From Candidatus Poriferisocius sp. (GTDB lineage: Bacteria > Actinomycetota > Acidimicrobiia > Acidimicrobiales > Bin134): 64,000 nucleotides of DNA. The position numbers and the translations under genes are program-made. Of the stretch, positions 1,193 through 53,631 are shown piece by piece. Positions within the stretch are counted from its first letter, which is position 1. The number at the start of each line of letters is the position of its first letter. Under the pieces are notes generated by a model, which had not been told where the DNA came from, ran no database searches, and was given only the letters and a program-made list of their open reading frames with translations. Location of the stretch: contig NZ_OZ242338.1 in assembly GCF_965208475.1 (NCBI RefSeq), positions 1,426,782 to 1,490,781 on the forward strand, read 5' to 3'.

Positions 1193-1960
1193 TCAACCGT
1201 CGTCTTCCACCCTGACGCCGGGAACGTTCTCGTCGATACTCTCGTCGAAGTCAACCGGCCCCTCGGGTTGGGAGAGATTGGCCACCAGCGAAGGCGACAC
1301 CCCGAGGAGATCGCCTACGGCGAGGGGCAGCGGCACCTCCGCATCCCGAGGCGCCAAGGCAATGGTGAAGGCCTCGCCGTCCCTCTTGAAGCGGACATCG
1401 CCGAAATCCTCGTAGATCCGCTCGTCGGGCTCGGCGGCGACCGCGGTGAGCGCGCTCGACCAGCGCACGATCTGCATCACAGCCGGCTGCCCATCGCACT
1501 CTGCGCCCACCGCGCTGATCACCCCGAACTCGGAGGCGGTGATGCCGTTCACGTCCATGGTCACGAACATCGACTCGAAGAACTTGGCCATGATGGCGTC
1601 CTCGCCCGCGGCGTTGGCAGTGAACGGGTGGATGTGGATGAGCCCGTCAGAGTGGGAGTGGATGCCCTCGGGGTCGTAGGGATAGCCCTGGCTGTTCTGC
1701 CGACCCTGGAAGATTGCCTGGAACGCGCCCTCGCCATCGCCGGCGGTGCAGTCCCATACTCCATAGGCGGAGTGCCAATGGTCGCTGAGGCCGGGGCGAG
1801 CCTCGGCCTCGCGCAGGAAGCGGGCGTACGCCACCACCCCGATGCCGATCAAGATGATGAGCACCACCACGGCGGGAAAGCCGATAGGCCGCCGCCGCTG
1901 TCCGACGCCGCCCATCGACGCGGCCCGCGCCACCTTTCGAGAACCAGAGGCTCTTGCCAC
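1193..1960 (-). CDS. Membrane-anchored hypothetical protein with His-rich motifs
   Basis: Basic N-terminus followed by one TM helix (FPAVVVLIILIGIGVVAY). Extracytoplasmic part has 'HWHSAYGVWDC' and 'GIHSHSDGLIHIHPF'. Codon usage is consistent with neighbours. Confidence 0.6.
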   Translation of the reverse strand: MARASGSRKVARAASMGGVGQRRRPIGFPAVVVLIILIGIGVVAYARFLREAEARPGLSDHWHSAYGVWDCTAGDGEGAFQAIFQGRQNSQGYPYDPEGIHSHSDGLIHIHPFTANAAGEDAIMAKFFESMFVTMDVNGITASEFGVISAVGAECDGQPAVMQIVRWSSALTAVAAEPDERIYEDFGDVRFKRDGEAFTIALAPRDAEVPLPLAVGDLLGVSPSLVANLSQPEGPVDFDESIDENVPGVRVEDDG

Positions 1961-1991: not shown

Positions 1992-3251
1992 TCAGCGCAT
2001 CAGCCGCCCGAACAACTCCAAGTACTGCTCGGCCACCTGTTGGGGACCGACGGCGTTTTCGGCGAATGCCCTCCCCCGCCGGCCCATCGCGGCCAGGCCG
2101 GCCGGATCGTCGACCATCTCGGCCACCGCCGCGCAGAAAGCAGCAGCATCGTCGGGGTCGACCGTCCGACCGGCGCCCGAGGCGGCCAGCAGCCGCTCCA
2201 CCTCGCTGCCCCGGTCGACGCTGGCCAGCACCGGACGGCCCGCGGCCAGCACCGAGTACACCTTGGAGGGCACGCTGGACTCGCCCAACCCGGCCCGCAG
2301 CAGAACCAATTGCAGATCAGCGGCGGCCAGCACCTCCCCCAGTCGCTCCGGCGGCTGCCAGCCCACCAGGTGCAGGTTGTCGAGCCGGTCGGCCGCGGCG
2401 GCCACCGGCGAGCGGTTCACCCCGTCGCCGTTGACCACAAACTGGACATCGGTCCGCCCCCAGAGGGCGAATTGCTCGGCCGCGGCCACCACCAGTTCCA
2501 GAGGCTGGGAGTGCCCCAGGTTCCCGGCGTACATGACCACCGTTTTGTCCGAGTCGCCCCCCGGCCCCAAATCGGCCCGGTATGGGTTGTGCCGATCTGA
2601 CGGGGTGATGCGGGCGGGGTCGACCGCGTTGGAGATGACCACCACCTTGTCCGGGCTGTCACTGTCGCCGAGCTTGGCCCGCACGTTGACGGCCATGCCC
2701 TCCGAGAGCACAGTCACCGCATCGGCCCGCCGATACATCCAGCGCTCAAGCCTGCGGGCCGCGGCCACCACCCGGGGGCTGCGCAGAACGCCGGTCTCCA
2801 CCGCGGCATCGGGGAACACATCCTGCACGTTGAACACCAGGGGCACCCTTCCCCGCAGGGCTGCGGCCCATCCCGCAGCCCCCAGAGTGAGCGGGGGCGA
2901 CATGGCGAGCACTGCATCGCAGCGGCGCGCCGCGACGACGGCGTCGGCCCCGGCCAGCACGGTAAACCCGGCGAATGCGGCCGCCCGGGCCGCCAAACGC
3001 CCCTTGTCGGCCGGAAACGGATGCCAGCGCCGGATCCGCCCCCACGATTCCCGCTGGGTCCGAACGAGGCGGCCCGACCATCCCTCGGCCACCGCATGGT
3101 CCCGGTACCACGGAAGGCTGGTCACCACTTCGACCTGATGGCCGCGGGCCGTCCATTGCCCGCAGATAGCGCTAATCACCTCTCCGGTGGGAGCGGAGTC
3201 CGGCTCATAGTGAGGGCACAGCACCAGGATGCGGAGACGATGCCCGCTCAT
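1992..3251 (-). CDS. Glycosyltransferase family 4 (WcaI-like)
   Basis: 'RILVLCPHYEPDSAPTGEV' N-terminus typical of WcaI-type GT4. C-terminal GT1 Rossmann region (VMYAGNLGHSQ...). Confidence 0.8.
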   Translation of the reverse strand: MSGHRLRILVLCPHYEPDSAPTGEVISAICGQWTARGHQVEVVTSLPWYRDHAVAEGWSGRLVRTQRESWGRIRRWHPFPADKGRLAARAAAFAGFTVLAGADAVVAARRCDAVLAMSPPLTLGAAGWAAALRGRVPLVFNVQDVFPDAAVETGVLRSPRVVAAARRLERWMYRRADAVTVLSEGMAVNVRAKLGDSDSPDKVVVISNAVDPARITPSDRHNPYRADLGPGGDSDKTVVMYAGNLGHSQPLELVVAAAEQFALWGRTDVQFVVNGDGVNRSPVAAAADRLDNLHLVGWQPPERLGEVLAAADLQLVLLRAGLGESSVPSKVYSVLAAGRPVLASVDRGSEVERLLAASGAGRTVDPDDAAAFCAAVAEMVDDPAGLAAMGRRGRAFAENAVGPQQVAEQYLELFGRLMR

Positions 3252-11000: not shown

Positions 11001-11400
11001 CGACCTGGAGTTGGGCTCGAAGCTCCTTTACCGCCTCATGGCGATGCTGTTCAGCCACCTCATTGGTCACCGGCTGCTCACCCCGCAGCCTCATCAAGCG
11101 ACGCATCTCTTCGTGGGGGGTCTCCGTCATGCCCACCAGCAGGCGAACCTTGGGCCTATTACCACCACGCTCCGGCAGGGCATCTACCCCATCGGCAATG
11201 AGCCGCCAGCCCCGAAGGTTGAAATACCCCACCGCCGCGTCCACCGAGTGCGACGACGCCAGCGACTTGAGCATCACCTCCTCAAGCGAAGTGTCGATGT
11301 TGTCGAGGATGAGAGGCACCAGGACTACTCCCTGTTCCCAAACGTCATCCGGTCTCGCAGATTGCCCGCCGCCTCGTACTGCTCCCTCGTCAACCCCCAA
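8008..11400 (-). CDS. PLD-family (single HKD) nuclease domain fused to SNF2-family helicase
   Basis: - HKD motif: 'HAKLYLCH...VGYVGSSNLTRAGL'.
- SNF2 motifs: 'VVGLGKTMVG', 'LIDESHNLRN', 'LLLTATPYNK', 'DVLSEGQNLQD', 'QRAGRVDRIGQ'.
- About 330 aa of C-terminal region with no motif I recognise.
- Alternative start at GTG 11319 (MPLILDNID...), 9 nt after a GGGAG and just past the methyltransferase stop. Confidence 0.85.
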   Translation of the reverse strand: MGVDEGAVRGGGQSARPDDVWEQGVVLVPLILDNIDTSLEEVMLKSLASSHSVDAAVGYFNLRGWRLIADGVDALPERGGNRPKVRLLVGMTETPHEEMRRLMRLRGEQPVTNEVAEQHRHEAVKELRAQLQVGLPTVEDEKALRKLRRQMAEGDVEVRLFLAHRLHAKLYLCHRDDTAAPRVGYVGSSNLTRAGLWEQGELNVDVLDTDATAKLAAWFEDRWVDQFSVPANIELIELLDESWASETPLDPYLVYLKMAYHLSHEAREGLIQYGLPASMAERLLEFQAAAVKIAARIVNQRGGAMVGDVVGLGKTMVGTAIARLLQEENGFETLVVCPKNLVGMWESYQHEFQIHGRVLSLSMVTRELPDMRRHRLVLIDESHNLRNPKRQDYQALHDYITENDSKVLLLTATPYNKGFADVAAQIALFARPDDDLGIRPERAVAEHGEAEFAAMCEGRTSSLAAFQASEHLEDWQDLMSQFLVRRTRRFIQDNYAYEDENGRPHLSFGDGRPFHFPEREAVPLEREVVPSDPAAAMMDQRTIDAIAELLLPRYNLARYLDPRVAPTEDEQEVIDDLRNSANGNLSGFNRIMMFKRLTSSGPAFLATLRRHALRNLVAIHAIDHRLLLPVGSVDNALWSAEFDAQEGDLFEEGLFNVDEMPDLSVPARAYQKLAQARPGRIRWMRPQLFAEEFGEALRSDTDAIRSLLSHFGTWDADNDGKIASLVELITRRHPGEKALVFTEAADTADYVAEELIRRGIEGVAAVTGDSENPTALARRFSPRANQGVTAGRDQPELRVLISTDVLSEGQNLQDARIVVNYDLPWAIVRLVQRAGRVDRIGQRAEVVLVYSLMPAGSVDEEINLRDRIRGRLEENAELLGSDEKFFGDDTERAVISGLYDEHSDFRFADGGEDVDPVSMAYEIWRQAADSHPRIAKRVESLPNVVYAAMQAQTGGTAEGVVVHSQSATGADAFAFTTTDGESRRITPQEALHLSRCEPETLPAACMEDHHDMVAIALDGPLRAPPNRATGALLGVREKCWRKLNDHRATIAPSLFVDPDELDAVLDAINERPLYEAVKQKLSNAIRNRTPEDLAALVIDLHRDGRLCLPAPRSGVGTEPSVICSMGLWNP

Positions 11401-12989
11401 GCCTGCGCCAACAACCAGTCCGCCTCATCGGTGATGTGGCGCAGCTTCCACATCATGTATCTGCCCACCAGCATTCTTGCGTTTCCACTGCCTCTTAGGT
11501 TGAACTCCACATACTTCACCATTTCGTCTTGAAGCTCCCTGGACAACCCCAACATACGCTGAACTAAACTCACGAGTTCCATGTCACACGGAGGGTGGTG
11601 AGACGCTGCTAAGCGTTCAATGTCACACGGAAGTGCGGATAGCACGCTCCGTGTGACATGGAACTCGTCTCCGAACATCAGCCACCACAAGTACCCCCAT
11701 CGACCGGCCAGGCAAAGCAAGGCCAAGTCTCGAGAACGCTCATTCTGGAAATTGAACCACGAGGGCTGACTTGAGTTTGTGGTTACAGGTCGCCTGGATA
11801 TGGGATCGACTACTGGGGGTTCCGTGACAAATGCTCCCAATGTTTGAACAGCAGCGACCTTCTTGACACCCAAATCAAATAGCTGGCCACTCTTGTTGTT
11901 AACGCTTACAAGTGGAGCACACATCTCTGCAAGTGATGTAAAGGCATCGACTACATCTCCATCATCTATAAACGGCCACTTGGTTGCGTCTCCACAATTG
12001 AAAAGTACTCGTGAAGGATTGCCGTATTCAATCGAAGAGAACAAATATGGGCGGCTAGGAGTCAACCAGCGGTGACACCTTGTCGTGTATATCCTACGTT
12101 TACCTCCTTTGCCAGATATAACTATACTATTTCTCACCTTGGCAGAACCAGAAAATAAACTATCTGAAGCTCTGCTGTAAGAGGACAGCCACAAAGTAGA
12201 GAACTGTACACTTAGGTTATTCCGCAACAACTCAAAATCGTTGCTGTAACACAGCGAGTGCATTACGATCATCGCAAATCGTCCTTTGTCGTTCAACAAG
12301 GTAGATGCGCGCTCGGCACAGACGGCGTAGATGTCTGGACAATTACCGGTCTCATACCCAATCCACTTGTAGTCGAACTGACTGCGTTTCTTGCCTTTGA
12401 GTCCGATGTAGGGCGGGTTGCCGATGATCGCGTCGAAGCCGCCGTTTCTCCAGACGGTGGGGAACTCGGCGAACCAATGGAAGGGCTTGTGGGTTTCCTT
12501 CCAGGTTTCGAGCGGGGCTGCATCGCCTCGCATCTTGTGGAGACCTCGGTCGGCTTGGTCGGCTACCTGACCGATGCGGGTTCTGAGGAGGCCTTTGGCC
12601 CGTTGCAGAGCCGCTAGATCGTCGGTTGAATCTTGAATCGCTACGAACTCCTCGTAGGCCACCGCCGCCGACTCCACGGCGTCCTCCACCTCAGCGATCC
12701 CGAAGGGCAGCACTCCCCTGTCTGAGAACCGCCGCTCGATATCTTCAGCGTCGGCGATTCCTACAAGGAGGTTGCCGGACTTGATGTTGAAGTCCAGGTC
12801 GGGGAGCGGCTCGATGTGGGAGGCGTTGTCGAGTTGGGCGGCCAACTTCAGAAACAGCCGCAGCTTGGCGATCTCGGCTGCCTCGGCCATGAGGTCGACG
12901 CCGTAGAGGTTGTTCAGGCAGAGAGTCTTAAGCAGCCAGTAGCGCGTGCTGGTGTGGGCCCGGGCCTCTCGGAGAAATGGGGCTTCCAC
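11325..12989 (-). CDS. C-terminal fragment of Eco57I/PglX-like N6-adenine DNA methyltransferase (motif IV + putative target-recognition domain)
   Basis: 'NLYGVDLMAEAAEIAKLRLFLKL' and 'FDAIIGNPPYIGLKGKK' (NPPY motif IV). Its frame joins the upstream fragment if the G tract at 12991-13001 changes by +1 or -2. Confidence 0.8.
   Translation of the reverse strand: MEAPFLREARAHTSTRYWLLKTLCLNNLYGVDLMAEAAEIAKLRLFLKLAAQLDNASHIEPLPDLDFNIKSGNLLVGIADAEDIERRFSDRGVLPFGIAEVEDAVESAAVAYEEFVAIQDSTDDLAALQRAKGLLRTRIGQVADQADRGLHKMRGDAAPLETWKETHKPFHWFAEFPTVWRNGGFDAIIGNPPYIGLKGKKRSQFDYKWIGYETGNCPDIYAVCAERASTLLNDKGRFAMIVMHSLCYSNDFELLRNNLSVQFSTLWLSSYSRASDSLFSGSAKVRNSIVISGKGGKRRIYTTRCHRWLTPSRPYLFSSIEYGNPSRVLFNCGDATKWPFIDDGDVVDAFTSLAEMCAPLVSVNNKSGQLFDLGVKKVAAVQTLGAFVTEPPVVDPISRRPVTTNSSQPSWFNFQNERSRDLALLCLAGRWGYLWWLMFGDEFHVTRSVLSALPCDIERLAASHHPPCDMELVSLVQRMLGLSRELQDEMVKYVEFNLRGSGNARMLVGRYMMWKLRHITDEADWLLAQAWGLTREQYEAAGNLRDRMTFGNRE
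11572..11668. repeat. 22-bp perfect inverted repeat (53-nt spacer) inside the methyltransferase 3' half
   Basis: acgagttccatgtcacacggag (11572-11593) is the reverse complement of 11647-11668. A third partial copy, caatgtcacacggaag, lies in the spacer. Confidence 0.9.
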
Positions 12990-14566
12990 ACCCCCCCCCC
13001 CGCGGCAATCTCTTCGGCGCGATTCAACACCGCTGTGTACAGGGGGTCGAGCACGTCATGGGCGGCCAGCAGGAACGCTCCCGATCCCACTGTGGGATCG
13101 CAAACCGTCAGAGAGCGGAGCACCTCGAACGCTCGCTGGCACTCGTCGGCAGAGTTGAGCGTGTAATAGAGGTAGTCGGCCAGCAGCGCGGCAAGATCCA
13201 GGTTCTGCGTGACAGCGTCGTTGATGTCGGCTACGCCTCCAGAATCCACCAGCTCTTTCTGCTCGGCGTATCGCTTGCGGCGATGGCTCACGTCGCACCA
13301 CCGCTCGCCGGGCAAGGTGATGTCCAGCCCCCCGTCAGGAAACTCGCTGGGCGGCAGATCGCCCTCAGGCAAGGGCACATCGATTCCGTAACCCATAGCG
13401 TCGTGCAAGTAGTCGTCGCCGCTGCTGGACAACAGCTCGCACGGACTCTCGAGGCCGGCATCCACCAGCCTGTCGGCAATAGCCGGAATGATGGCCGAGG
13501 TGGCCATGTAACCGGTTACGTCTGGTTTGGTGTAATACGCCCCTTGCTGCTTCTTGTTCACATACTGCTCGAAGATGAATCCCAAGATGTCGGGGTTGAT
13601 CTCCTTGGCATCGCCAGTGGGCCGCTCGTCGAGATGCCAGCGCCACTGGTCGAAGAAGTCGAACAGCTTCTCGAAAGCCGTGTCGGGAATCTCGATGCAG
13701 TAAGCGCCTTCCAGCGCGTGGGGCTCGAAGATGCCACCGTTCACATAGGGCACATCGCCAATGATCTGCTCGATCGCCGCATCGTCGTAGCGGCGGGCCG
13801 CAGGCGGGCTTCCCAACCCCTCGTGGAACAGCGGCAGCAGGAACTGGCGGAAGAATGCGTAGAACCGGTCGTCCCCGAGGCGCTCTCGCACCATTCCCAG
13901 CCGCTTGCGGAGGTAGTGGGTGTCGCCGGCCACGAAGCCCTTGCGCTGGATGAAGTACACGAACATGAGACGGTTCATCAGCACCGACGCATACCAGCGC
14001 TGGTCGTCTGGCCTGGGAATGCCCTCGATATGCTCGGCCAGTCGCTCATGATGGTCTTTGAACTCCCGGAAGAACGACTTGGTGACCTTCTCCACGTTGA
14101 ACGACCGCCGCACCCGTTCGAGCACCCTTACTGCGGTCAGCTCCGGCTGCTCAGCCATGGTGAAACAAACATCGCGCAGGCGTTGCAGCAGAGCATCGTT
14201 GCCGTGGTGCGGGCGATAGTGGTGATCCACGAGCCGATGCCCCACCCCGGAAGGACGCTGCTCCGGCCACAGCCAAAGCTGCTCCCCCGGTGAGGCGAAC
14301 ACCACGAGCTGGTCACGCGACAAACGCTTCGCCGCCTTCACGATCTTATGCTGCACCGACCGAAGCGGAATCTCGCTGCACCCCACCGACCAAACCGTCA
14401 CGCCCCGCTTGTCGGCCACTGCCTCTGCGTCCCAAACCGATTCCTCGGCCTCAACGGCGACAGCCAAGCCATGAATGGGGTTGTCCCAACCAAGCCGCCG
14501 GAACAAACCGCCGAAATCATCGGCGTCCATATATTCCTGCATCTCCTGGTCGGATGGCCCAGGCAT
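12914..14566 (-). CDS. N-terminal fragment of the same N6-adenine DNA methyltransferase (N-terminal domain, motif X, motif I)
   Basis: 'QQGAYYTKPDVTGYM' (motif X) and 'LTVCDPTVGSGAFLLAAHD' (SAM motif I). 'YASVLMNRLMFVYFIQRKGF' is the helix typical of Type IIG/PglX-like N-terminal regions. It terminates about 25 codons after the G tract. Confidence 0.8.
   Translation of the reverse strand: MPGPSDQEMQEYMDADDFGGLFRRLGWDNPIHGLAVAVEAEESVWDAEAVADKRGVTVWSVGCSEIPLRSVQHKIVKAAKRLSRDQLVVFASPGEQLWLWPEQRPSGVGHRLVDHHYRPHHGNDALLQRLRDVCFTMAEQPELTAVRVLERVRRSFNVEKVTKSFFREFKDHHERLAEHIEGIPRPDDQRWYASVLMNRLMFVYFIQRKGFVAGDTHYLRKRLGMVRERLGDDRFYAFFRQFLLPLFHEGLGSPPAARRYDDAAIEQIIGDVPYVNGGIFEPHALEGAYCIEIPDTAFEKLFDFFDQWRWHLDERPTGDAKEINPDILGFIFEQYVNKKQQGAYYTKPDVTGYMATSAIIPAIADRLVDAGLESPCELLSSSGDDYLHDAMGYGIDVPLPEGDLPPSEFPDGGLDITLPGERWCDVSHRRKRYAEQKELVDSGGVADINDAVTQNLDLAALLADYLYYTLNSADECQRAFEVLRSLTVCDPTVGSGAFLLAAHDVLDPLYTAVLNRAEEIAAGGGVWKPHFSERPGPTPARATGCLRLSA
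12991..13001 (-). repeat. Homopolymeric G11 (C11 on + strand) inside the methyltransferase catalytic domain
   Basis: Direct count gives c x11 at 12991-13001. It lies between motif I and motif IV. A length of 12 or 9 would give one roughly 1,080-aa ORF. Confidence 0.95.
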
Positions 14567-43325: not shown

Positions 43326-46300
43326 CTACACGGCGATGGCGTTCTCGCCCAGCATCTCCCGCAGCTCGCCGATCAAACCGCTTCCCGCGTCCACCCCATA
43401 GGCCGAGGAGAGCTTGATGCCCTTGTCGGCGCCGAGCATGAGAATCACCTCGGACTTGCCGGGATGGCCGGCAAGAGCCGACTTGAGGCCGTCGATGCGA
43501 TCGGGGGTCAGCCTGCGAGCAGGGAGATTCACCCGCAGGGGCCCCAGGCCGTTGGCCCAGTCGAGGCGCACCGGCTCCACTCGGCTGCACAGAAGCTTGG
43601 GCTCTTCGTCGCGGCTTTCCAGCCTCCCCTCCATGACAACCACGAGATCGTTCTCGATCTTGTGGCCGTGCTCGGCAAGGGCCTTGGGGAACAGAGTCAC
43701 CTCCAGGCTGCCGTAGAGGTCCTCTAGCTCGCACGACCCCATCTGGTCGCCTCGCTTGGTCCACCTCTTGCTGAAGTTGCTGACAACCCCGCCCACCTTG
43801 ACCCGGGTGCCCTCCTCGACATCCACAAGCTGGTCGATCCGGTGGCTGGTCCTGCGGGCCAGCACCCCCTCCAAGCCCATGACCGGATGATCGGACACGT
43901 ACAGCCCCAGCATCTCCCTCTCGGCGGCCAGTCGGCGGGCCTTGTCGAACTCGGTGTCGGGGATGGCGATGTCCTCGTAGACGGAATCGAGGGCGCCCTC
44001 GTCGAACAGGCTCATCACCCCTTGCTCGCGCTCGCGCTGCTGCTGGATGCCTCGCCGCATGATCGGCTCGAACACGTTGAGCAGCCCCTGGCGGGGGTGG
44101 CCCAGCGAGTCGAAACTGCCCGCTTTGACGAGGGCTTCCACGACCCCCTTGTTCAGCACCATCGGGTCGACCCGCTGGCAGAAGTCGTAGAAGTCGGCGA
44201 ACGGGCCATTCTCGGCCCGCTCGTCCAGAATCATCTGCGCCGCGCCCGCCCCCACTTGGCGGATGGCGGAGAGCCCGAAGGAGATGGACGGCTCGCCGCC
44301 GGGCGATCGGATGGCGGCGAAGTCGGAATGGGAGAGGTTCACGTCGGGCAGGGTCACCCTGATCCCCCGCTGGCGGCAGTCGGCCAGGTACACAGCCGCC
44401 TTCTCCAGCTTGTTCTTCACGCTGGTCAAAAGGGCGGCCATGTACTCCACCGGGTAGTTGGCCTTGAGGTAGGCCCCCTGATATGCGATCAGGCCGTAGC
44501 CATAGGAGTGGCTCTTGTTGAAGGCGTAGTCGGCGAACTGTTCGATGATGTCGAACAGCTCCGTGCCCAGATCGGTGCCGTAGCCGTGCTGATCGCAGCC
44601 CTCCACGAAGGAGTCCCGCTCCTTGGCCATCAGCTCGCGGTCTTTCTTGCCGCAGGCCTTGCGGAGGTTGTCGGCCTCGGCCAGGGAATAGCCGGCGAAC
44701 CGCTGGGCCACCCGCATGACGCTCTCCTGGTAGATCATAAGACCGTAGGTGTCGGCCAAGATGTCGGACGCGTCCTCGTGGAAGAACTCCACCGGCCGGC
44801 GGCCGTTCTTGCGATCGGCGTAGTCGTGGTGCATGTTGGCGGCCATCGGGCCGGGCCGATACAGGGCCACCAGGGCGGCCACATCGTCGAAGCAGGTGGG
44901 CTTCAGGGATCGCATCAACGCTCGAATCGGGGGGCTCTCCAGCTGGAACACCCCGATGGTGTCGCCCCGGGCCAGCAGCTCGTAGGTGGCCGAGTCGTCC
45001 AGCGATACGTTGTCGATGTCCATCGCAGTGCCCAGGGACTGCTCGATGAGCCCGAGCGCATCTTCGATGACGTCCAGGTTCCGCAAGCCCAGGAAGTCCA
45101 TCTTCAGCAGGCCCAGGTCTTCCACCGCGTGCATCTCATACTGGGTGACGATGGGCACCTCGTCGAGGCTCTGGTTCGGTGAGGCCTTGCGCTGGATGGG
45201 GAGGTGCTCGGTAAGCGGCTCCTTGGTGATCACCACCGCGGCGGCGTGGATGCCGTCCTGGCGGCGCAGGCCCTCTAGGCCGCGGGCCACATCGATCACC
45301 TTGTGGGCGTCCTCGTCGCTCTCGCGCATCTCCCGCAGTTCGGCCGCCGCCTTGTATCCGTCGGCGTACTCCTCGGTCGGTTCCAAACAGGCCCACAGCG
45401 GGGTGTCGCGGCCCAGCACCAGCGGGGGCATGGCCTTGGCCAGCTTGTCGCCCAGCGAATAGGGAAGGTCCAGCACCCGGGCGCTGTCGCGCACCGCGGC
45501 CCGGGCCTTGATGGTGGAGAAGGTGATGATCTGGGCCACGTGGTCCCGGCCGTACTTCTCGGTGGCGTAGCGGATGATCTCGTCCCGGTAGCGGGAGTCG
45601 AAGTCCATGTCGATGTCGGGCATGGACACCCTCGACGGGTTGAGGAACCGCTCGAACAGCAGGTCGTAGCGAATGGGATCCAGGTCGGTGATCCGCAGGC
45701 AGTAGGCCACCGCGCACCCCGCGGCGCTGCCCCGGCCCGGGCCCACCCGGATGCCCCGCTCGCGGGCGTAGCGGATCAAGTCCCAGGTGATGAGGAAGTA
45801 GGAGGAGAAGCCCATGTCGGAGATGACCTTGAGCTCGTAGGCCAGCCGGTCGGCGGCCCCGTCGGAGAGCGGGCGGCCCCAGCGGGACTCAGCCCCTTTC
45901 AAGGTCAGCTCCCGGAGGTAGTCGTCGGCGGTTTCGAAACCCTCGGGGATGGGAAAGTCGGGCAGCTGGGGATTGCCGAACTCGATCTCCACGTCGGCGC
46001 GCTCGGCGATCCACAGCGTGTTGTCGCAGGCCGGGCCCAGCTCGGCGAACAGGCCTCGCATCTCGGCGGACGACTTGAGATAGTGCTCGTTGCCGTGGAA
46101 CCTCAGGCGGTCGGGATCGCTGACCAGCGAGCCGGTCTGCACGCACAGCAGGGCGTCGTGGGCCTCGGCGTCAGATCGATGGGTGTAGTGGCTGTCGTTG
46201 GTGGCCAGCAGGGGGGCGCCGATCTGCTCGGCCAGCCGAAGCAGCTCGGGGTTGGTCCTCTGCTGCTCGGGGATGCCGTGATCCTGGATCTCCACGAACA

Positions 46301-46853
46301 GGTTGTCCTTGCCGAAGATGTCCTGGAGGCGGGCCGCCTTGGCCACCGCCTCCTCGTACTCGTCGCGCAATAGGGACTGGAGCACGTGCCCGCCCAGACA
46401 GCCGGTGGTGGCAATCAGGCCATCGCTGTGCTCGGCCAACAGATCCCAGTCCAGCCGGGGCTTGTAGTAGTAGCCCTCGAGGAATGCCCGGCTGGACAGC
46501 TGGATGAGGTTCTTGTAACCGGCGTTGTCCTCGGCCAAAAGGGTGAGGTGGTAGTAGAGCTTGGCCCCTCCCTCGGTGCTGCCCCCGCCGTCGTCCATCT
46601 TGCCCCGCCGGGGCGGGCGCTCCGACCGGTTCTCGTGGGCCATGTAGGCCTCCGTGCCGATAATGGGCTTGACGCCCTCGGCCCGGCAGGCCCGGTAGAA
46701 GTCGATGACCCCGTACATGTTGCCGTGGTCGGTGATCCCCAGCGCGGGCTGCCCGTCGGCAGCCGCCGCCTTGACCAGGTCACCAACCCGGGAGGCGCCG
46801 TCGAGAATGGAGTACTCGGTGTGGACGTGGAGGTGGGTAAAGGAATCGGACAC
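43326..46853 (-). CDS. dnaE: DNA polymerase III alpha subunit
   Basis: 'FTHLHVHTEYSILDGA' PHP domain; polymerase core and OB region throughout. GTG start at 46853 preferred over 46955. Confidence 0.95.
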   Translation of the reverse strand: MSDSFTHLHVHTEYSILDGASRVGDLVKAAAADGQPALGITDHGNMYGVIDFYRACRAEGVKPIIGTEAYMAHENRSERPPRRGKMDDGGGSTEGGAKLYYHLTLLAEDNAGYKNLIQLSSRAFLEGYYYKPRLDWDLLAEHSDGLIATTGCLGGHVLQSLLRDEYEEAVAKAARLQDIFGKDNLFVEIQDHGIPEQQRTNPELLRLAEQIGAPLLATNDSHYTHRSDAEAHDALLCVQTGSLVSDPDRLRFHGNEHYLKSSAEMRGLFAELGPACDNTLWIAERADVEIEFGNPQLPDFPIPEGFETADDYLRELTLKGAESRWGRPLSDGAADRLAYELKVISDMGFSSYFLITWDLIRYARERGIRVGPGRGSAAGCAVAYCLRITDLDPIRYDLLFERFLNPSRVSMPDIDMDFDSRYRDEIIRYATEKYGRDHVAQIITFSTIKARAAVRDSARVLDLPYSLGDKLAKAMPPLVLGRDTPLWACLEPTEEYADGYKAAAELREMRESDEDAHKVIDVARGLEGLRRQDGIHAAAVVITKEPLTEHLPIQRKASPNQSLDEVPIVTQYEMHAVEDLGLLKMDFLGLRNLDVIEDALGLIEQSLGTAMDIDNVSLDDSATYELLARGDTIGVFQLESPPIRALMRSLKPTCFDDVAALVALYRPGPMAANMHHDYADRKNGRRPVEFFHEDASDILADTYGLMIYQESVMRVAQRFAGYSLAEADNLRKACGKKDRELMAKERDSFVEGCDQHGYGTDLGTELFDIIEQFADYAFNKSHSYGYGLIAYQGAYLKANYPVEYMAALLTSVKNKLEKAAVYLADCRQRGIRVTLPDVNLSHSDFAAIRSPGGEPSISFGLSAIRQVGAGAAQMILDERAENGPFADFYDFCQRVDPMVLNKGVVEALVKAGSFDSLGHPRQGLLNVFEPIMRRGIQQQREREQGVMSLFDEGALDSVYEDIAIPDTEFDKARRLAAEREMLGLYVSDHPVMGLEGVLARRTSHRIDQLVDVEEGTRVKVGGVVSNFSKRWTKRGDQMGSCELEDLYGSLEVTLFPKALAEHGHKIENDLVVVMEGRLESRDEEPKLLCSRVEPVRLDWANGLGPLRVNLPARRLTPDRIDGLKSALAGHPGKSEVILMLGADKGIKLSSAYGVDAGSGLIGELREMLGENAIAV

Positions 46854-47003
46854 TGCGTTCCTGTGGAAGATGTGTGGCCTGTATGTGGATAACTTACAGG
46901 CTTGTGGTTTGGCCTGCCCCGACCATACCAACACCCGGCGACTCGTGCTTATCACCGGCTGAGGGCGCGTGTTCTCCCTGGTACACGGCTACTTGGCCAT
47001 GAG

Positions 47004-47075: not shown

Positions 47076-49817
47076 TTATCCGGCTGCCTGGGCGGTGAGC
47101 GCTGCCTGCACTTTGGGCAGCGTGCCGATGCCGTCGGCCCACCCGTGACGGCGCGCCCGGGCGAGCCACGCCGCTATGTCGTCGTCGCTCATGCCGCCGC
47201 TGCGGCCCTCGAGCCGGTCGAGCACCGCTGTCCAGTCGCGCACCCCTGCATGGTGGCGGCGCGCCCTGAACGACGCGATGTGCGCTTCGACCTCAGCGAT
47301 CAGCGCCGGGTCCATCACGTACGCGACGGTCACCTCGGGCACTACGACCGGCGGCGGATCCTGCTGCTGCTGTTGTTGTTGTTGTTGTTGGGTTTGGGCG
47401 GCTGCCTGGACGGTGAGGGCTGCCTGCACTTTGGGGAGTGTGCCGATGCCGTCGGCCCAGCCGTGACGGCGTGCCCGGGCGAGCCACGCCGCTATGTCGT
47501 CGTCGCTCATGCCGCCGCTGCGGCCCTCGAGCCGGTCGAGCACCGCTGTCCAGTCGCGCACCCCTGCTTGGTGGCGGCGCGCCCTGAACGACGCGATGTG
47601 CGCTTCGACCTCCGCGACCAGCGCCGGCGAGATGCCCGCGCCGTCGCCGCTGTCCGCGTCGGGGACGGCCTGCTGCTGATCGGCCCCGTCCTGGTCGTGG
47701 GGGGGTGCCTGCTGGCCGTCGGACACCGGGTCGCTGTTGTCGTCGACGCTGGGAGAGGTCTCCAGGTTCGGCCCGTAGCTGACCGTGACCTGGCGGTGCG
47801 CTGACGGCTCGCCGTTCGCCCGCTCCAGGCTCATCGAGATGTCATAGGCGCCGGTGGAACCGTACAACGCCGGATCCAGCGTCAAATCGACCCGCAACAG
47901 CCTGTCCCAGTGGCCCGGCTTGACATGCATGGCGAACCAGTGCCTGGGCCCCGCGACCTTCGTGTACGACGACGGGCTGGCGCCCGCCTGATCGGCGCGA
48001 TGCACCGTCGCGGCCACCGGCGCGTTGTCCCACGACCCGTCGGGGCGGCCGGTGCGCAGCCGGATGCGCAGCACATCCCAGCACAACCCCGCAGAGCGGC
48101 CCTCGCAGTCGGGCGGCCCGTCGACCCTGAGCCAGAACCGTCCCAGCCCCGAACGGCTCTCGCCCGCACGGCTCAACACGCTGACCTGACCGATCACCGC
48201 CCCATCGGCGCCCACAGCATCGAAGCCCCTCAGATCGTCGTCGACTACCGCCACCGCCATGTTGAAGTCCGACTCCGCCTGAGCCTTGGACTCGCTTCGC
48301 CGCAGGATCTTCGACAGCGAACCCGACGTGTCCCAGTTCTCGCTGAACACATGACGAATGATGCGGGTCTCGGACCTCACATCGTCGTCGTGAGCGGCGG
48401 TCACCGTCACCGTGCGCACCTCATCGTGATCGCGGTGCGTCCACGACACCACCGCAGGGTCGAACGACAGCCCCTCGCCGGTGGGGGTGATCGTCAACGG
48501 CGACCCCGGCGCGGGAATGTTGGAGTTGCGCACCGTGTACTGAACGGTGCGGCCCTCCCCGACGCGCAGACACTCCCGCTCGCGACAGTGGAAACTGAAA
48601 CGCGGATCAGGGTCGAACACCGGATCCAACCCCCGGGAGCGCTTAACCACCACCGTGACCGGCGCGAACGCCACCGACGCGTCCGACGACGACAACAACA
48701 ACTGGAACTTCGCGTCAGGCCCATTCGCCGGCAAACCATCCGCGCCAGAAGCCACACCAGTCACCTCCACCACCCGATAACCCTTGTGCAGCGCAGGCTC
48801 GTCAATAGACGTGTAACCCGCCCAATCCGCAGCAGTGAAATCGAAACTCACCGACCCAGACCGCGCACGCCTCTCGGTAAACACCCACTCTCTGATAACC
48901 CCAGTACCGGTAGTCTTTTCATGCAGACGACCAGGGCCCGCAACATAACCATCCTGCACCTTCTCGCCCACAACACCGTTACGCGCGTTATGGCCATTCA
49001 CATACTTGCGGCCCATGAACAAAACCGCAGGATGATTCACCAAAAAACGCGACGGATCAGACGACGCAGCCGTCACCGACACCCGCGAAGTCACCTCCTT
49101 AGCCAAATCCAAACGCACAGACACCGTCTCACCCTCACCCACAAACACCACCGAAGGCGCCGACACCAACAGATCCGACGCCTCATTCACCGACCCGTTC
49201 ACCCCGATCTTCATGGTCTCCGTGCGGGGGGCGGACCACGAGCCGCTGCTGACACTGGAGCTACGCACAAAGCTGCTGTCAGCGATGCTGAAGCCGGGCG
49301 TCCCGCCCGAGTCCTCGTTGTTTGAAGCCGCGCTGTCGACACGGTTGTTGCCCGAAAGACTGCCATGGTTGTCGAGCACAATGAAATACTCGGTGTCCGC
49401 CGCGAGGCTGATGCCGCTCCCCGGCGCCGCGAAACGCAGCCTCTGAACACTGCTGAACGGCGAGAAAGCCGGCCACGCCAACGTCCCGACAACACCGCCG
49501 GGGCGGCCGTCCGCCTCAGCATGCACCGACACCGACAACTTCGAAACCGCAGCAGCATCAGTCAACTGAGCAAACTGCACATGGACACTGCTCAACGTGT
49601 AACCCAACGCGTTGCCGCCCGTCGAGAACGCCTGCGCAGCATCCAACAAAGGCAACTCGTAGTCGTTCCCCTCGCTCTGGCCCAGATTGCTCACCAACAC
49701 CGACTCAGTCGGCGACTGCGCCCCAGCAGGCGACGACGGCGACACAGCCAGCACCGCAGCCAACACCGCCAACACCGCCAACACGCGCACCACGCGGCAT
49801 CGGCCCCTCACAGGCAC
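47076..49817 (-). CDS. Large secreted/surface repeat protein of unknown function
   Basis: Signal peptide 'RGRCRVVRVLAVLAVLAAVLAVSPSSPAGAQ'. Beta-rich body. C-terminus has two near-identical modules joined by Q10. Start taken as GTG 49817, directly after the G23 tract; the open frame continues to 50021. Confidence 0.7.
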   Translation of the reverse strand: MPVRGRCRVVRVLAVLAVLAAVLAVSPSSPAGAQSPTESVLVSNLGQSEGNDYELPLLDAAQAFSTGGNALGYTLSSVHVQFAQLTDAAAVSKLSVSVHAEADGRPGGVVGTLAWPAFSPFSSVQRLRFAAPGSGISLAADTEYFIVLDNHGSLSGNNRVDSAASNNEDSGGTPGFSIADSSFVRSSSVSSGSWSAPRTETMKIGVNGSVNEASDLLVSAPSVVFVGEGETVSVRLDLAKEVTSRVSVTAASSDPSRFLVNHPAVLFMGRKYVNGHNARNGVVGEKVQDGYVAGPGRLHEKTTGTGVIREWVFTERRARSGSVSFDFTAADWAGYTSIDEPALHKGYRVVEVTGVASGADGLPANGPDAKFQLLLSSSDASVAFAPVTVVVKRSRGLDPVFDPDPRFSFHCRERECLRVGEGRTVQYTVRNSNIPAPGSPLTITPTGEGLSFDPAVVSWTHRDHDEVRTVTVTAAHDDDVRSETRIIRHVFSENWDTSGSLSKILRRSESKAQAESDFNMAVAVVDDDLRGFDAVGADGAVIGQVSVLSRAGESRSGLGRFWLRVDGPPDCEGRSAGLCWDVLRIRLRTGRPDGSWDNAPVAATVHRADQAGASPSSYTKVAGPRHWFAMHVKPGHWDRLLRVDLTLDPALYGSTGAYDISMSLERANGEPSAHRQVTVSYGPNLETSPSVDDNSDPVSDGQQAPPHDQDGADQQQAVPDADSGDGAGISPALVAEVEAHIASFRARRHQAGVRDWTAVLDRLEGRSGGMSDDDIAAWLARARRHGWADGIGTLPKVQAALTVQAAAQTQQQQQQQQQQDPPPVVVPEVTVAYVMDPALIAEVEAHIASFRARRHHAGVRDWTAVLDRLEGRSGGMSDDDIAAWLARARRHGWADGIGTLPKVQAALTAQAAG
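47082..47612 (-). repeat. Two 213-bp near-identical blocks (period 318 bp) encoding the duplicated C-terminal module
   Basis: 47082-47294 versus 47400-47612 show about 7 substitutions. Protein module: 'ALIAEVEAHIASFRARRH.AGVRDWTAVLDRLEGRSGGMSDDDIAAWLARARRHGWADGIGTLPKVQAAL'. Confidence 0.9.
47361..47390 (-). repeat. Trinucleotide repeat (CAA)6(CAG)4 encoding Q10 between the two modules
   Basis: The + strand reads ctgctgctgctgttgttgttgttgttgttg. Confidence 0.95.
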
Positions 49818-49819
49818 GA

Positions 49820-49842
49820 CCCCCCCCCCCCCCCCCCCCCCC
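49820..49842 (-). repeat. Homopolymeric G23 (C23 on + strand) immediately 5' of the signal-peptide coding sequence
   Basis: Direct count gives c at 49820-49842. Confidence 0.95.
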
Positions 49843-50091
49843 GAACGGAGAGACCCATCAACAACACCAACAACAGACGAACCAGCCAACACGCTCACAA
49901 CATGACCCTCCCGCTCAGCCTTCAACGGCCTGCGATATCTTTGCAGCATCCAAGCGCTGAACACATCCCGACGCCGGAACACGCGCAGCAATACATGCAG
50001 CCAGCATACGGACCCACACACACCCGGTCAACGACGCCATAGCCCCAGCGCCCTGCCGGCCGCCTTGGGCGCTGCCGTGCGCCACGCGAAT

Positions 50092-50113
50092 GACCCGGGC
50101 CGAAGCCCGGGTC
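50092..50113 (-). terminator. 9-bp GC stem with UUCG loop (minus-strand RNA), candidate U-tail-less terminator or stabiliser downstream of bpa
   Basis: The minus strand reads gacccgggc-ttcg-gcccgggtc. It lies 215 nt after the bpa stop. There is no U tract. Confidence 0.35.
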
Positions 50114-50298
50114 GACAGCCGAATCGTGCAAAGTCGCTTTCGTTCTCGTGTTCATCCACAAGCTGGTTCAGGCGCAGGGGGTCGACTCCTGGCACGAACC
50201 CAGTCGAATGGGTCCGGACGCGATATGGCTCGGCCGACAGGGATGCGTCCGGCCACAGTCCGCAACGCAGCACACATGCTCACGACACGACACCAACC

Positions 50299-50331
50299 AA
50301 CACCGCAACCAAACACTCGACACACCACTAG
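50299..50331. repeat. Right arm of the 33-nt inverted repeat; overlaps the bpa stop codon (CTAG)
   Basis: See the left arm. The terminal ctag contains the TAG stop of bpa (50328-50330). Confidence 0.95.
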
Positions 50332-50855
50332 AGATAGGTGCCCGGGGCGCGGTCGGGGCCGGGGACAGGGGCGCCGGGGGGCAGTTCGGCCCGGATGTTG
50401 GCAAGCTGCTGCTGCGCGGAGACCTGCTGGGCGAACAGGGCGGCCTGGATGCCCTGGATCAGGCCCTCCAGCCACCCCACCAACTGGGCTTTGGCCACCT
50501 GGAGCTCGGGTTGGCTGGGGGGGTGGTCTTGGGGAAACGGCAGGATCAGGCGGTCGAGCTCCTCGCTCAGATCAGGGGACAGCGCCGAGCCCAGCTCCTC
50601 GATCGAAGTGGCGTATATCTCCCGCAGCCGGTCGCGGCTGGACTCGTCCAGCGAAGCCTGGCGAACCTCTTCCAAGAGCTGCTTCATCATCGTGCCGACC
50701 CTCATCACCTTGGCCGGCTGCTCTATGGCCTCCCTGGCCGTCTCGGGCTCAGTCTTCCCGCTATCGGGAAGCGCCCCATCGTGGACAACCTCGGCGGGCT
50801 CAGCAGGCATCGGCTGGCGGGTGTCGGACATGGCTGGCAATCTACCCGCTGCCAC
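50328..50855 (-). CDS. bpa: Bacterial proteasome activator (Bpa/PafE-like)
   Basis: Helical protein of about 170 aa ending in 'GTYL', compared with the GQYL proteasome-docking motif of Bpa. The start may be ATG 50831. Confidence 0.65.
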   Translation of the reverse strand: MAAGRLPAMSDTRQPMPAEPAEVVHDGALPDSGKTEPETAREAIEQPAKVMRVGTMMKQLLEEVRQASLDESSRDRLREIYATSIEELGSALSPDLSEELDRLILPFPQDHPPSQPELQVAKAQLVGWLEGLIQGIQAALFAQQVSAQQQLANIRAELPPGAPVPGPDRAPGTYL

Positions 50856-50875: not shown

Positions 50876-52063
50876 TCAGCCCCGGGTTCCGTAGGCGGCC
50901 AGACAGGGGACCAGCATCTCAGCCGAGGTCAGCGAGCCGTGGCGGGCGATCAACTGGAACGCCGCCTTCGACTCTTTGCCCGAAGGATTTTTCGCCGGGG
51001 GCTTGGGCTCGGTGAACGCCACCGGGTCGCGCGGCGCCAAGACCACATCGCCCATCCGCGACCGAGCCTCCGGGCTCACCCGGGGACCGAGCCACTCCTC
51101 GTCCAGAACCTGCTGCCGCCCGGCCACCAGGCCGTAGCGGCCGTAGCGGTCGGCGGCCGCCGCCAACAGCTCGGCAGCCCGGCCGGGCCGGGCGTGCAGC
51201 CAGCGGAACCGGGCCTCCCCCGAGACCACCGCCGACAGGGCCAGCACCTCGCGGTCGAGTTCCACGGTGGCGTCGCCCACCATGACCAGACCGTGGTCGG
51301 ACACCACCACCAGCGCCGCCTCCGGGGGCAGCGCGGCCAGGAGCTGGGCCACCAGATGGTCCACATCGGCGTACTCGGCGTCCAGGTGGGGGCCGAATCC
51401 GTACTCGTGGGCCACCCGGTCGGGCCCGTCGTAGTAGGCGTACACCAGCGGTGCGCCGCCGTCCACCAGCATCTGCGCCTCCACCGCGATAGAGCTGGTC
51501 AGCTTGTAGCCCCGGTGGTCGACCCCGTCGAGATGGGCCCGGGTGAAGCCGGTCCCGCGGAACTCGCTGCGGCCCACCACCGGCACCCGCCGCCCGAAGA
51601 AAGGGGGCCGGGTCTGCACCTGCTCGGGCACGATCGTCTTGCGGGCATCGGCCTTCTTCGGCCCCGCCGTCCATCGCAAGGCGTTCAACACCTGTCCCTG
51701 GATGTGTATCTGGTAGCCGATCAGGCCGTGCTCGCCGGGGGTCGCGCCAGTGGTCAGCGAGGTCAGCGCCGTGGTGGTGGTGGTGGGCGCCACCGTGGTG
51801 ATGGGGCCGCCTTCCATGGCCGACAGCACCGGGGCCAGCCCAGCCCGCACCTGAAGCTGCTCCCACCCCATGCCGTCCACCAGCAACAGCACCACTGCCT
51901 TGGCGTCGCGGGCCGGCGCGGGCAGCCAGCCCGAGGCGTCCGGCGGGCCGAGCAGGGCGGGCACCACGTTGCTCAGACAAGCCCCCCGGTAGTCGGGCAG
52001 CACCGGGAAACCTCTCCCCGGATCGCCGGTATCCAGCCTGTCGCTGCCGCGGTCACTACCCAT
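50876..52063 (-). CDS. Alkaline-phosphatase superfamily protein (nucleotide pyrophosphatase/phosphodiesterase-like)
   Basis: 'VVLLLVDGMGWEQL', 'LTSLTTGATPGEHG', 'YYDGPDRVAHEYG' and 'VVSDHG' metal-site motifs. Confidence 0.75.
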   Translation of the reverse strand: MGSDRGSDRLDTGDPGRGFPVLPDYRGACLSNVVPALLGPPDASGWLPAPARDAKAVVLLLVDGMGWEQLQVRAGLAPVLSAMEGGPITTVAPTTTTTALTSLTTGATPGEHGLIGYQIHIQGQVLNALRWTAGPKKADARKTIVPEQVQTRPPFFGRRVPVVGRSEFRGTGFTRAHLDGVDHRGYKLTSSIAVEAQMLVDGGAPLVYAYYDGPDRVAHEYGFGPHLDAEYADVDHLVAQLLAALPPEAALVVVSDHGLVMVGDATVELDREVLALSAVVSGEARFRWLHARPGRAAELLAAAADRYGRYGLVAGRQQVLDEEWLGPRVSPEARSRMGDVVLAPRDPVAFTEPKPPAKNPSGKESKAAFQLIARHGSLTSAEMLVPCLAAYGTRG

Positions 52064-52677: not shown

Positions 52678-53631
52678 TTACTGTTGGAGAAGCCGGTAGA
52701 GCCGGGAGAGGTCCGCGGGAAGCTCGGCCTCAAAATGGAGCCGTTCGCCGGTACCGGGATGGTCGAAGGCCAGGGTGCGGGCGTGCAGCGCAGGGCGGCC
52801 GATGCCGACGACGGTCGGGCCGCCGTAGAGGTCGTCGCCCAGTACCGGGTGGCCGATGGCGGCCAGATGCACCCTGATCTGATGGGTGCGTCCGGTTTCC
52901 AGCTCCAGTTCCAAACAGGCGGTGTCATAGGCAACCACATCGTCGGATGACTCGGCGCCGGCCGGCATTCGGGCCGCAACCCGATAGCGGGTTCGAGCCG
53001 GGCGGCCGTCGGCGGCCACCGCCATCTTGACGGGGTGGCGGGCAGAGCGGCCCACCGGGGCGTCGATCACCCCCCGGTCGTCGGGCGGCATTCCCGCTAC
53101 CAGGGCGGTATAGCCCCGATGAACCTCCCGCCGGCCCAACGCCGCGGTAAGCGCCTCATGGCCATCCGGTGTGCGGGCCACCATGAGCAGCCCCGAGGTG
53201 CCCTTGTCGAGCCGGTGGACAATACCGGGCCGCTCCGGCGCGCCCACCTCGGCAATCTCGGGGAACCGGGCCAGCAGGCCGTTCACCAACGTGGCCGACC
53301 CATGGCCCGATCCGGGGTGGACCACCAGATTGGCCGGCTTGTGTACCACGATCACCTGTTCGTCGGCGTGCAGCACCTCGATCTCTACTGAAGGGTCAGG
53401 CCCCGGTGCCAGCCGGCCCGCCGACGGGGCCTCCAGCAGCATTATCTGATCGCCGATCACCATCCGCTGCGACCGCCCGTCGGCTGGAGCACCGTTTATC
53501 GCCACCTTTTGGCCATCGATCAGGCGGGCGGCCTCGGCTCGGCTGCATTCCCACACCAGCGCCACCACCCGGTCAAGGCGCTCGCCGGCCAGCGCCTGGG
53601 GCACAACTCCCTCAAGGCTCAAGGGACTCAT
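52678..53631 (-). CDS. rluD: RluA-family 23S rRNA pseudouridine synthase
   Basis: S4-like N-terminus and 'HRLDKGTSGLLMVA' catalytic motif. Confidence 0.85.
   Translation of the reverse strand: MSPLSLEGVVPQALAGERLDRVVALVWECSRAEAARLIDGQKVAINGAPADGRSQRMVIGDQIMLLEAPSAGRLAPGPDPSVEIEVLHADEQVIVVHKPANLVVHPGSGHGSATLVNGLLARFPEIAEVGAPERPGIVHRLDKGTSGLLMVARTPDGHEALTAALGRREVHRGYTALVAGMPPDDRGVIDAPVGRSARHPVKMAVAADGRPARTRYRVAARMPAGAESSDDVVAYDTACLELELETGRTHQIRVHLAAIGHPVLGDDLYGGPTVVGIGRPALHARTLAFDHPGTGERLHFEAELPADLSRLYRLLQQ

Follow-up and report, generated by a model that had tools for sequence, protein, structure and literature searches.

A 23-nt poly-G tract ahead of the signal-peptide core of an exported protein in Candidatus Poriferisocius, and its probable role as a contingency locus

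A run of 23 identical bases, placed immediately ahead of the hydrophobic core of a signal peptide, raises the question of what such a run is doing there: whether it is a switch, a part of the leader that acts on initiation, a structural element, or simply an error or relic. The stretch of DNA analysed here (64,000 nt, "the window") comes from the closed 3.88-Mb chromosome of Candidatus Poriferisocius sp. (Acidimicrobiales), and the run lies internal to that chromosome. It reads C23 on the forward strand at 49820..49842 and therefore G23 on the coding (minus) strand, 49842..49820, in the context CCGTTC-G23-TC-GTG-CCT-GTG-AGG (more widely, ...GGGTCTCTCCGTTC-G23-TCGTGCCTGTGAGGGGCCGATGCCGCGTGGTGCGCGTGTTGGCG...). 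Runs of C in this 67% GC window number 334, 107, 27, 2 and 1 at lengths of 4, 5, 6, 7 and 8, a drop of about 3.5-fold for each extra base, and the only outliers of the distribution are one C11 (12991..13001) and the C23. The base composition predicts only about 4e-6 runs that reach 23 in 64 kb. Chance does not account for G23, whose length (the assembly consensus value) is above the threshold, a G/C run of about 8-9 or more, at which tracts become prone to slippage. The initial annotation of this locus, made from sequence alone, had described a poly-G tract of 23 nt, a reading frame open through it and a signal-peptide-like stretch after it. The run is present as written, at 49820..49842, the frame is open up to 50021 and yields seven Gly codons, and the stretch ...RGRCRVVRVLAVLAVLAAVLAVSPSSPAGA followed by Q is found 3' of G23.

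The tract-bearing gene (47076..49898, minus strand) encodes, as a whole CDS, an exported choice-of-anchor-R family protein of 940 aa plus stop, within a range of 905-940 aa for the ORF. Its same-strand neighbours are rluD (52678..53631), a PF01663 phosphodiesterase gene (50876..52063) and bpa (50328..50855) on the upstream side, and dnaE (43326..46955) downstream. The choice-of-anchor R domain is encoded at 49194..49691 on the minus strand and spans residues 43-208 in the 913-aa reading; its match to NCBIfam NF041539 scores 85.6 bits (E 3.4e-24; cut-off 30), and the same family name is carried by the paralogs in their source records. Pfam gives no family on the window protein and only a weak LapA-like domain on paralogs, and a PDB sequence search gave no match. 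The AlphaFold model (pLDDT 63, moderate) has a string of beta-sandwiches over residues ~30-675, then a low-complexity linker and helical modules, and its Foldseek matches are generic Ig-like or adhesin-like beta-sandwich strings (TM ~0.1), so no specific function is assigned to the protein. The product had been called a surface antigen at the outset. The protein has a signal peptide and predicted beta-sandwich domains; no membrane anchor is seen, and an LPXTG-like C-terminal motif or hydrophobic tail is absent from all 23 family proteins. Surface exposure is presumed rather than read directly from the protein.

The C-terminal part of the window protein holds two copies of a 76-aa helical module (47627..47400 and 47309..47082, together 47082..47627, minus strand) joined by a poly-Q/Pro linker with its poly-Q at 47390..47358. 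Across paralogs P0002-P0017 the C-termini consist of shuffled modules whose number and order differ from one paralog to another. Two kinds of helical unit of about 76 aa occur among them (...HGWADG... and ...YLASQTHHGFAHVNRW...), together with a LapA/Calx-like beta domain and poly-Q or PQQDQ linkers. The window protein has the first kind only, in its two copies, and binding to a wall or host is a possible role of these units.

How the tract would be read depends on where transcription and translation begin. A promoter-like site, TTGACC-17 nt-TATGCT (50003..50031, minus strand), is the one match to the consensus, where 0.1 such sites are expected in shuffled sequence. It lies about 160 nt upstream of the tract and predicts a transcription start some 95-100 nt upstream of a GTG at 49898, so the tract falls within the predicted transcript and not in the promoter spacer. 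This GTG is preceded, at 7 nt, by a Shine-Dalgarno (SD) sequence GGGAGGG (49906..49912, minus strand) whose duplex with the anti-SD has a dG of -11.6 kcal/mol, a value that ranks in the top 0.4% among 5447 start-like triplets of the window. A promoter-spacer switch of the porA, opc or tpr type was considered and rejected, since the predicted promoter, a good SD and the start are all upstream of the tract.

From the GTG (49898..49896) the leader part of the ORF runs through about 18 codons and the first two bases of a Ser codon (VSVLAGSSVVGVVDGSLRS; 49843..49898, minus strand). The homopolymer itself (49820..49842, minus strand) then supplies the last base of that codon, Gly7, and the first base of the next Val codon. 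What follows completes a predicted signal peptide of 60 residues (49719..49898, minus strand): the leader, Gly7, a basic n-region VVPVRGRCR, a hydrophobic core VVRVLAVLAVLAAVLAV, and SPSSPAGA ahead of Q. The SP..P.GA motif with its following Q is kept across paralogs, and cleavage is predicted between AGA and Q in the window protein, with a mature N-terminus QSPTES...; the leader would yield the tryptic peptide SVLAGSSVVGVVDGSLR. Annotation pipelines differ on the start: an independent annotation (P0022, 940 aa) begins at 49898 and reads through the tract, and the PGAP model (P0001) begins at 49793, downstream of it. Two options had initially been left side by side, a tract in the leader or ribosome-binding region and a tract inside an N-terminal extension. 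The extension is the better supported of the two, given the SD, the in-frame GTG at 49898 and P0022, and this GTG is the likely start codon.

Just 3' of the tract are two in-frame GTG codons (49817..49815 and 49811..49809, within 49808..49817, minus strand) at which translation might alternatively begin, or begin again. A TGA overlaps the second of them (GTGA, 49811..49808), and the leader frame would end there if the tract lost one base or gained two. Simulated lengths for the window copy accordingly fall into three outcomes: G20, G23 and G26 give products of 939-941 aa, G22 and G25 give 29-30 aa and stop at the TGA of this GTGA, and G21 and G24 give 63-64 aa.

Other features of the 5' region can be noted separately. 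A perfect 9-nt tandem repeat (x2.9 at 49759..49784; GGTGTTGGC on the coding strand, VLA-VLA-VLA) lies in the hydrophobic core of the signal peptide, and slippage in it would alter the length of the core in frame. A GC-rich hairpin, CCCGGGC-TTCG-GCCCGGG (50095..50125, minus strand), without a T tail and absent from the output of the terminator scan, is intergenic, downstream of bpa and about 70 nt upstream of the promoter-like site. An Rfam scan of the whole window returned no known RNA family, so no known leader or riboswitch accounts for the 5' region.

The protein family to which the gene belongs is small. A search of 5.8 billion proteins yields only 21 relatives, all from sponge-associated Acidimicrobiia and several to a genome. 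Genomes carry 3 to 11 paralogs, two of them in the window's own genome besides the tract gene. A scan of JGI metagenomes with the family alignment found no relative, and exact-protein look-ups for P0001, P0002 and P0004 (for own-genome paralogs and for other assemblies) matched no record. For comparison, 22 loci were fetched from four other closed chromosomes (species-representative genomes), 20 of them representing the close family. A tract of G11-G21 lies directly 5' of the signal-peptide core in 16 of these 20, from three other closed chromosomes. With the further copies counted, at least 22 family 5' ends have G9-G30 at the same position; they come from four other closed chromosomes, assembled as MAGs, and one independent metagenome scaffold, and include two G9 leader modules in L006, a G10 in a tandem copy at L002, and a G30 (1444..1473) in the independent ENA scaffold L024. 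Short or interrupted runs take the place of the tract in L001, L009 and L010. In every family copy the run is G on the sense strand. G/C runs of at least 9 in the ~258 kb examined are confined to the family 5' ends, a restriction-modification (RM) gene described below, and C9 and C10 runs 5' of two distant homologs. Protein identity among paralogs is 47-80%, and the tract has, on these alignments, been kept through that wide divergence.

Tracts of this kind leave their mark on the databases. The deposited models P0002, P0005 and P0014 show poly-Gly just before the signal peptide, and others are N-terminally truncated; several deposited family proteins start at internal codons and have no signal peptide. 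In L023, an independent ENA metagenome scaffold, a 10-N assembly gap (701..710) sits exactly at the tract site, and short-read assemblies generally seem to break or stretch there (the L023 gap, the G30 of L024).

The 5' regions of the family fall into four classes, each with an upstream start codon 20-63 nt before the tract, and the short SD-preceded leader of the window copy has its counterpart in all of them. The upstream SD is strong in most copies (dG about -9 to -11.6 kcal/mol), weaker in L002, L003, L004, L008 and L017 (-6.6 to -7.9) and weak in L009 (-2.4). In classes A to C the interval from the tract to the hydrophobic core is free of ATG, GTG and TTG, so that in these copies the conserved Arg of the n-region (RRSLVGVV..., LRGLLTV..., LLRSLVAV...) can be made only by reading through the tract. 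Class D and the window copy differ in having in-frame GTG or ATG codons 2-9 nt 3' of the tract, and the ATGA/GTGA motif after the tract is kept in class-D paralogs. The leader peptides themselves are poorly conserved, with ~3 non-synonymous to 2 synonymous differences among class-D leaders, a count made by eye on short and few sequences.

Pairs of recent paralogs differ in tract length while their surroundings hardly differ at all. The G14 of L011 and the G12 of L012 have flanks that are 99% identical over 100 nt on each side; the G11 of L002 and the G12 of L004 have flanks 96-97% identical; and L005 (G11) and L013 (G14) are identical at 100 of 100 bases downstream. One leader is shared by tracts of G11 (L002), G12 (L004), G10 (the tandem copy at L002) and G30 (L024). 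By these comparisons the tract changes in length faster than its flanks. The polymorphism is one between recent paralogs and between assemblies: tblastn searches with dnaE, the phosphodiesterase and rluD found no syntenic ortholog of the window locus among the fetched loci.

The frame in which the tract delivers the ribosome to the mature protein also varies. From SD-preceded starts, seven copies are in frame (L001, L003, L004, L009, L011, L020 and the window) and the other 12 are not, a ratio that equals the expectation for random frames and so is not by itself proof that the tract is translated; and because homopolymer lengths in HiFi and Illumina consensus sequences are error-prone, individual ON or OFF calls among these may be wrong. 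Reading out of frame mostly meets a stop 1-10 codons past the tract. An intact ORF of 740-1141 aa nevertheless continues after the tract, in the mature frame, in 12 of the 12 out-of-frame copies. Such intact ORFs are what would be expected of reversible switching, and not of decay.

Several copies show rearrangement or apparent loss at the same site. L006 has a tandem duplication of its leader (2760..2953), with two SD-start-leader-G9 units 150 nt apart, and a 27-nt leader segment occurs twice in L014 (~2890..2976), with SD and ATG in each copy. Three copies look decayed or "locked": L009 (2947..2962) has an in-frame G6-A-G4 and would stay ON permanently; L010 (2939..2952) has G7-T-G6 behind an unrelated C-rich upstream sequence with no leader start; and L001 (2922..2928) has G7, with a stop 54 codons downstream. 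In the pairs L005/L013, L012/L013 and L003/L015 identity jumps across the tract (~2980-3000 in each locus), from 65-69% upstream to 91-100% downstream over 100 nt, and the tract may mark the edge of gene conversion or recombination that shuffles leader and promoter modules against gene bodies. The distant homologs L021 and L022 (32-33% identity; from another Acidimicrobiales chromosome) have poly-C (C10 and C9), not poly-G, about 30-40 nt 5' of the signal-peptide ATG (L021 2090..2155; L022 ~2149). The C10 of L021 is within a short ORF upstream, and the TGA of that ORF overlaps the ATG of the main one (ATGA). These poly-C runs may be a related but distinct 5' switch.

We consider it probable, from the sequence comparisons, that G23 is a contingency tract lying within the gene, read as poly-Gly in the signal-peptide n-region, and that it turns translation ON and OFF by slipped-strand mispairing. 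Translation would start, most likely, at the SD-preceded GTG at 49898, pass through about 19 leader codons and the poly-Gly, and enter a Sec-type signal peptide. Slipped-strand mispairing in replication would alter the length of the tract; lengths equal to 23 modulo 3 would give the full 940-aa pre-protein (ON), and other lengths would end translation after 29-64 codons (OFF). With each paralog bearing its own tract at the same position, a population would express shifting subsets of the repertoire. This mechanism supposes a high rate of slippage at G23 in vivo, OFF frames that silence the protein, and a product that is exposed on the surface, where host cells, phages or predators would select for diversity. 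A tract of this length is probably too unstable for a population ever to be uniform, and transcriptional slippage probably blurs the ON and OFF states further. The initial annotation had likewise seen here the architecture of a contingency locus, and the shared position of the tract, its variation in length, the mixture of frames, the intact ORFs of the OFF copies and a second tract in an RM gene all speak for that interpretation. The poor conservation of the leader peptides counts against a switch within the gene, as does the signal peptide, which is long at 60 aa. In the window and class D, moreover, the in-frame GTG or ATG after the tract, with pairing of the tract to the anti-SD, means that a frameshift might not silence the gene. 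The architecture of these copies may allow a switch of three states: an in-frame fusion, an ATGA/GTGA stop with re-initiation, and a leader that over-reads the start.

The second long G run that the initial annotation reported in the window also proves to sit at a frameshift in an accessory gene. It is a G11 (minus strand, 13001..12991) where two ORFs, each of about 550 aa, meet and overlap (12914..14566 and 11325..12989, both minus strand). An Eco57I methylase domain (5e-26) is found in the downstream ORF, and weak MmeI-methylase matches in both. In simulation, G12 or G9 at 12991..13001 fuses the two into one ORF of 1080 aa. The locus is in a stretch of low GC, 0.56-0.60 compared with 0.67 for the window. 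This split Eco57I/MmeI-like Type IIG RM gene is a candidate phase-variable enzyme, OFF in the consensus, and its frameshift supports the view that the organism uses poly-G tracts as switches.

The main alternative leaves the tract of the window copy untranslated. Translation would begin at GTG 49811 (or 49817), with a signal peptide M-RGRCRVVRVLAV..., and the poly-G would serve as SD or 5' UTR, its length slightly tuning initiation or acting through a leader uORF, one frame of which stops at GTGA (termination and re-initiation) while another reads 37 codons over the start; control would be graded, not ON/OFF. Several observations suit this arrangement. The in-frame GTGs lie 2 and 8 nt 3' of the tract and have an ATG as their class-D counterpart (L001, L004) within a conserved ATGA/GTGA; the product from 49811 has a compact, typical signal peptide; the poly-G/anti-SD duplex, at a dG of -14.1 to -14.3, is tighter than that of the upstream SD (-11.6); PGAP places starts downstream of the tract in P0001 and P0003; the 7:12 ratio of in-frame to out-of-frame copies is near random; and the distant homolog L021 carries its C10 in a small upstream ORF terminating at an ATGA overlap. 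Against it, classes A to C have no start between tract and core, so the tract must be translated there, and the window itself has an SD in the top 0.4% and an in-frame GTG upstream. Moreover, the distance from the GTGs to the 3' edge of the run is constant, so that length would hardly shift SD spacing, and the long tracts of more than 20 copies are left unexplained. On balance we regard initiation downstream of the tract as an unlikely account of the locus, if one with real points in its favour.

Much less probable is a purely structural role, in which a G-quadruplex in the mRNA or the non-template DNA strand blocks or modulates transcription or translation whatever the frame. The quadruplex potential that had been ascribed to the tract is energetically plausible for G15 and longer by ViennaRNA folding: with G-quadruplex energies included, the minimum-free-energy fold predicted for the 5' mRNA places G23 in a quadruplex of several tiers, runs of at least 15 can form three tiers, and the run is sense-strand G in every family copy. 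Most paralogs, however, have G11-G14 and could form at best weak two-tier quadruplexes, and the differences in length between near-identical paralogs and the conserved upstream SD and start would go unexplained. A quadruplex can also coexist with slippage and so is not a full alternative. Also very improbable, and by a small margin the least credible, is an error of assembly or sequencing, or a relic left by neutral slippage in decaying, functionless pseudogenes. Long homopolymers are miscalled on all platforms, scaffold L023 breaks at the site, L001 combines a short G7 with a disrupted ORF, and L010 has the interrupted G7-T-G6 without a leader. G23 is nonetheless internal to a closed 3.88-Mb chromosome, and 5 chromosomes, each assembled independently, have homologous runs at this site, as does an independent metagenome assembly. 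In addition, ORFs of ~3 kb are kept open in all 12 of the out-of-frame copies despite 20-50% protein divergence, which argues for purifying selection and hence for intermittent expression.

Among systems already described, the closest precedent, by analogy, is the G tract of the Bifidobacterium breve pilin genes, where a G11/G12 tract follows the Sec signal and precedes the protein body, and ON/OFF switching by replication slippage has been proven (PMC9187656). Sortase-dependent pilins of bifidobacteria have G10-G12 runs at 1-2 loci per genome, with LPXTG and sortase (PMC9187656). Both lineages are Actinomycetota, both have exported-protein genes with poly-G inside the 5' end and database ORFs that disagree, and in both the tract parts the start or Sec signal from the protein body, the slippage-set frame being proven in the pilins and proposed here. 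The Poriferisocius family differs in its range of G9-G30, its 3-11 paralogs per genome and its proteins without an LPXTG/sortase signal; its tract comes before, not after, the hydrophobic core; and it belongs to a marine sponge symbiont.

The opa repeats of Neisseria, and the G tract of pilC, lie in the region coding for the signal peptide. Like the present family, Opa is multi-copy, with a separate repeat tract early in the coding sequence of every member; the Opa surface proteins switch independently, which makes their repertoires combinatorial. The Opa repeat, however, is a pentamer, and the proteins are Gram-negative beta-barrel outer-membrane proteins of pathogens, with no relation in sequence or fold. 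The pentamer is CTTCT, and genic G runs in Neisseria reach 9-20/21 for pilC, lgtA and pglA (PMC5953494). In Campylobacter jejuni, poly-G tracts serve as a general switch, for surface structures as well as for the Type IIG RM gene cj0031; its genome is AT-rich, and a bias in mutation keeps the tracts at G9-G10 (PMC8355987). The pairing of poly-G on surface structures with a Type IIG RM gene recurs in the window, with its G23 gene and its G11 Eco57I/MmeI-like gene, although tracts in the Poriferisocius family reach G21-G30 at 67% GC, compared with G9-G10 in the AT-rich C. jejuni.

The poly-G upstream of tpr subfamily II genes in Treponema pallidum and the promoter tracts of porA and opc in Neisseria are in or adjoin the promoter and modulate expression level through transcription. 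They resemble the present tract as homopolymeric G/C at the 5' end of multigene families of surface proteins, and differ from it in that the promoter predicted in the window is ~160 nt upstream and SD and start codon precede the tract. Mycobacterial tracts are short (~7-9 nt), and the genes that hold them are single-copy genes of metabolism or regulation rather than members of a dedicated surface-protein family. Mycobacterium tuberculosis offers another actinobacterium with reversible frameshifts in G/C homopolymers, its phase variation by homopolymer tracts including glpK (PMC10334774; bioRxiv 10.1101/717272).

The mechanism proposed is thus of a known kind, and the lineage and the gene family are new to it. 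Homopolymer contingency loci are textbook matter in a few host-adapted pathogens and, lately, in bifidobacteria. In the literature searched there was no publication on the choice-of-anchor-R tract family, nor on phase variation or homopolymer contingency loci in sponge symbionts or Acidimicrobiia. Some consequences are practical. Gene callers mis-annotate the family, with truncated N-termini and lost signal peptides in at least 6 of 17 deposited models; tract lengths in MAG consensus sequences should not be taken as fixed genotypes; and the family, with its more than 20 naturally occurring tract lengths, provides a well-delimited panel for tests.

If the switch works as we infer, a dominant lineage of sponge symbionts stochastically diversifies both its exported proteins and its restriction-modification, which would bear on how symbionts avoid ingestion by sponge cells and escape phages, and on how they compete with one another. 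A broader and distinctly more speculative proposal, which we offer tentatively as something rather less than probable, is that the sponge-symbiont Acidimicrobiia (Ca. Poriferisocius, Ca. Poriferisodalis and relatives), an uncultured and mutualistic lineage, keep a true "phasome" of 3-11 mosaic, exported beta-sandwich proteins that switch independently, with unusually long poly-G tracts (up to 23-30 nt) in the signal-peptide n-region, and phase-variable Type IIG restriction-modification; that the switch is graded, with three states, in the architecture of class D and the window; and that stochastic surface variation is a core strategy of persistence. Should that be so, what has been supposed a trait of pathogens would be a persistence strategy in a filter-feeding, phagocytic, phage-rich host.
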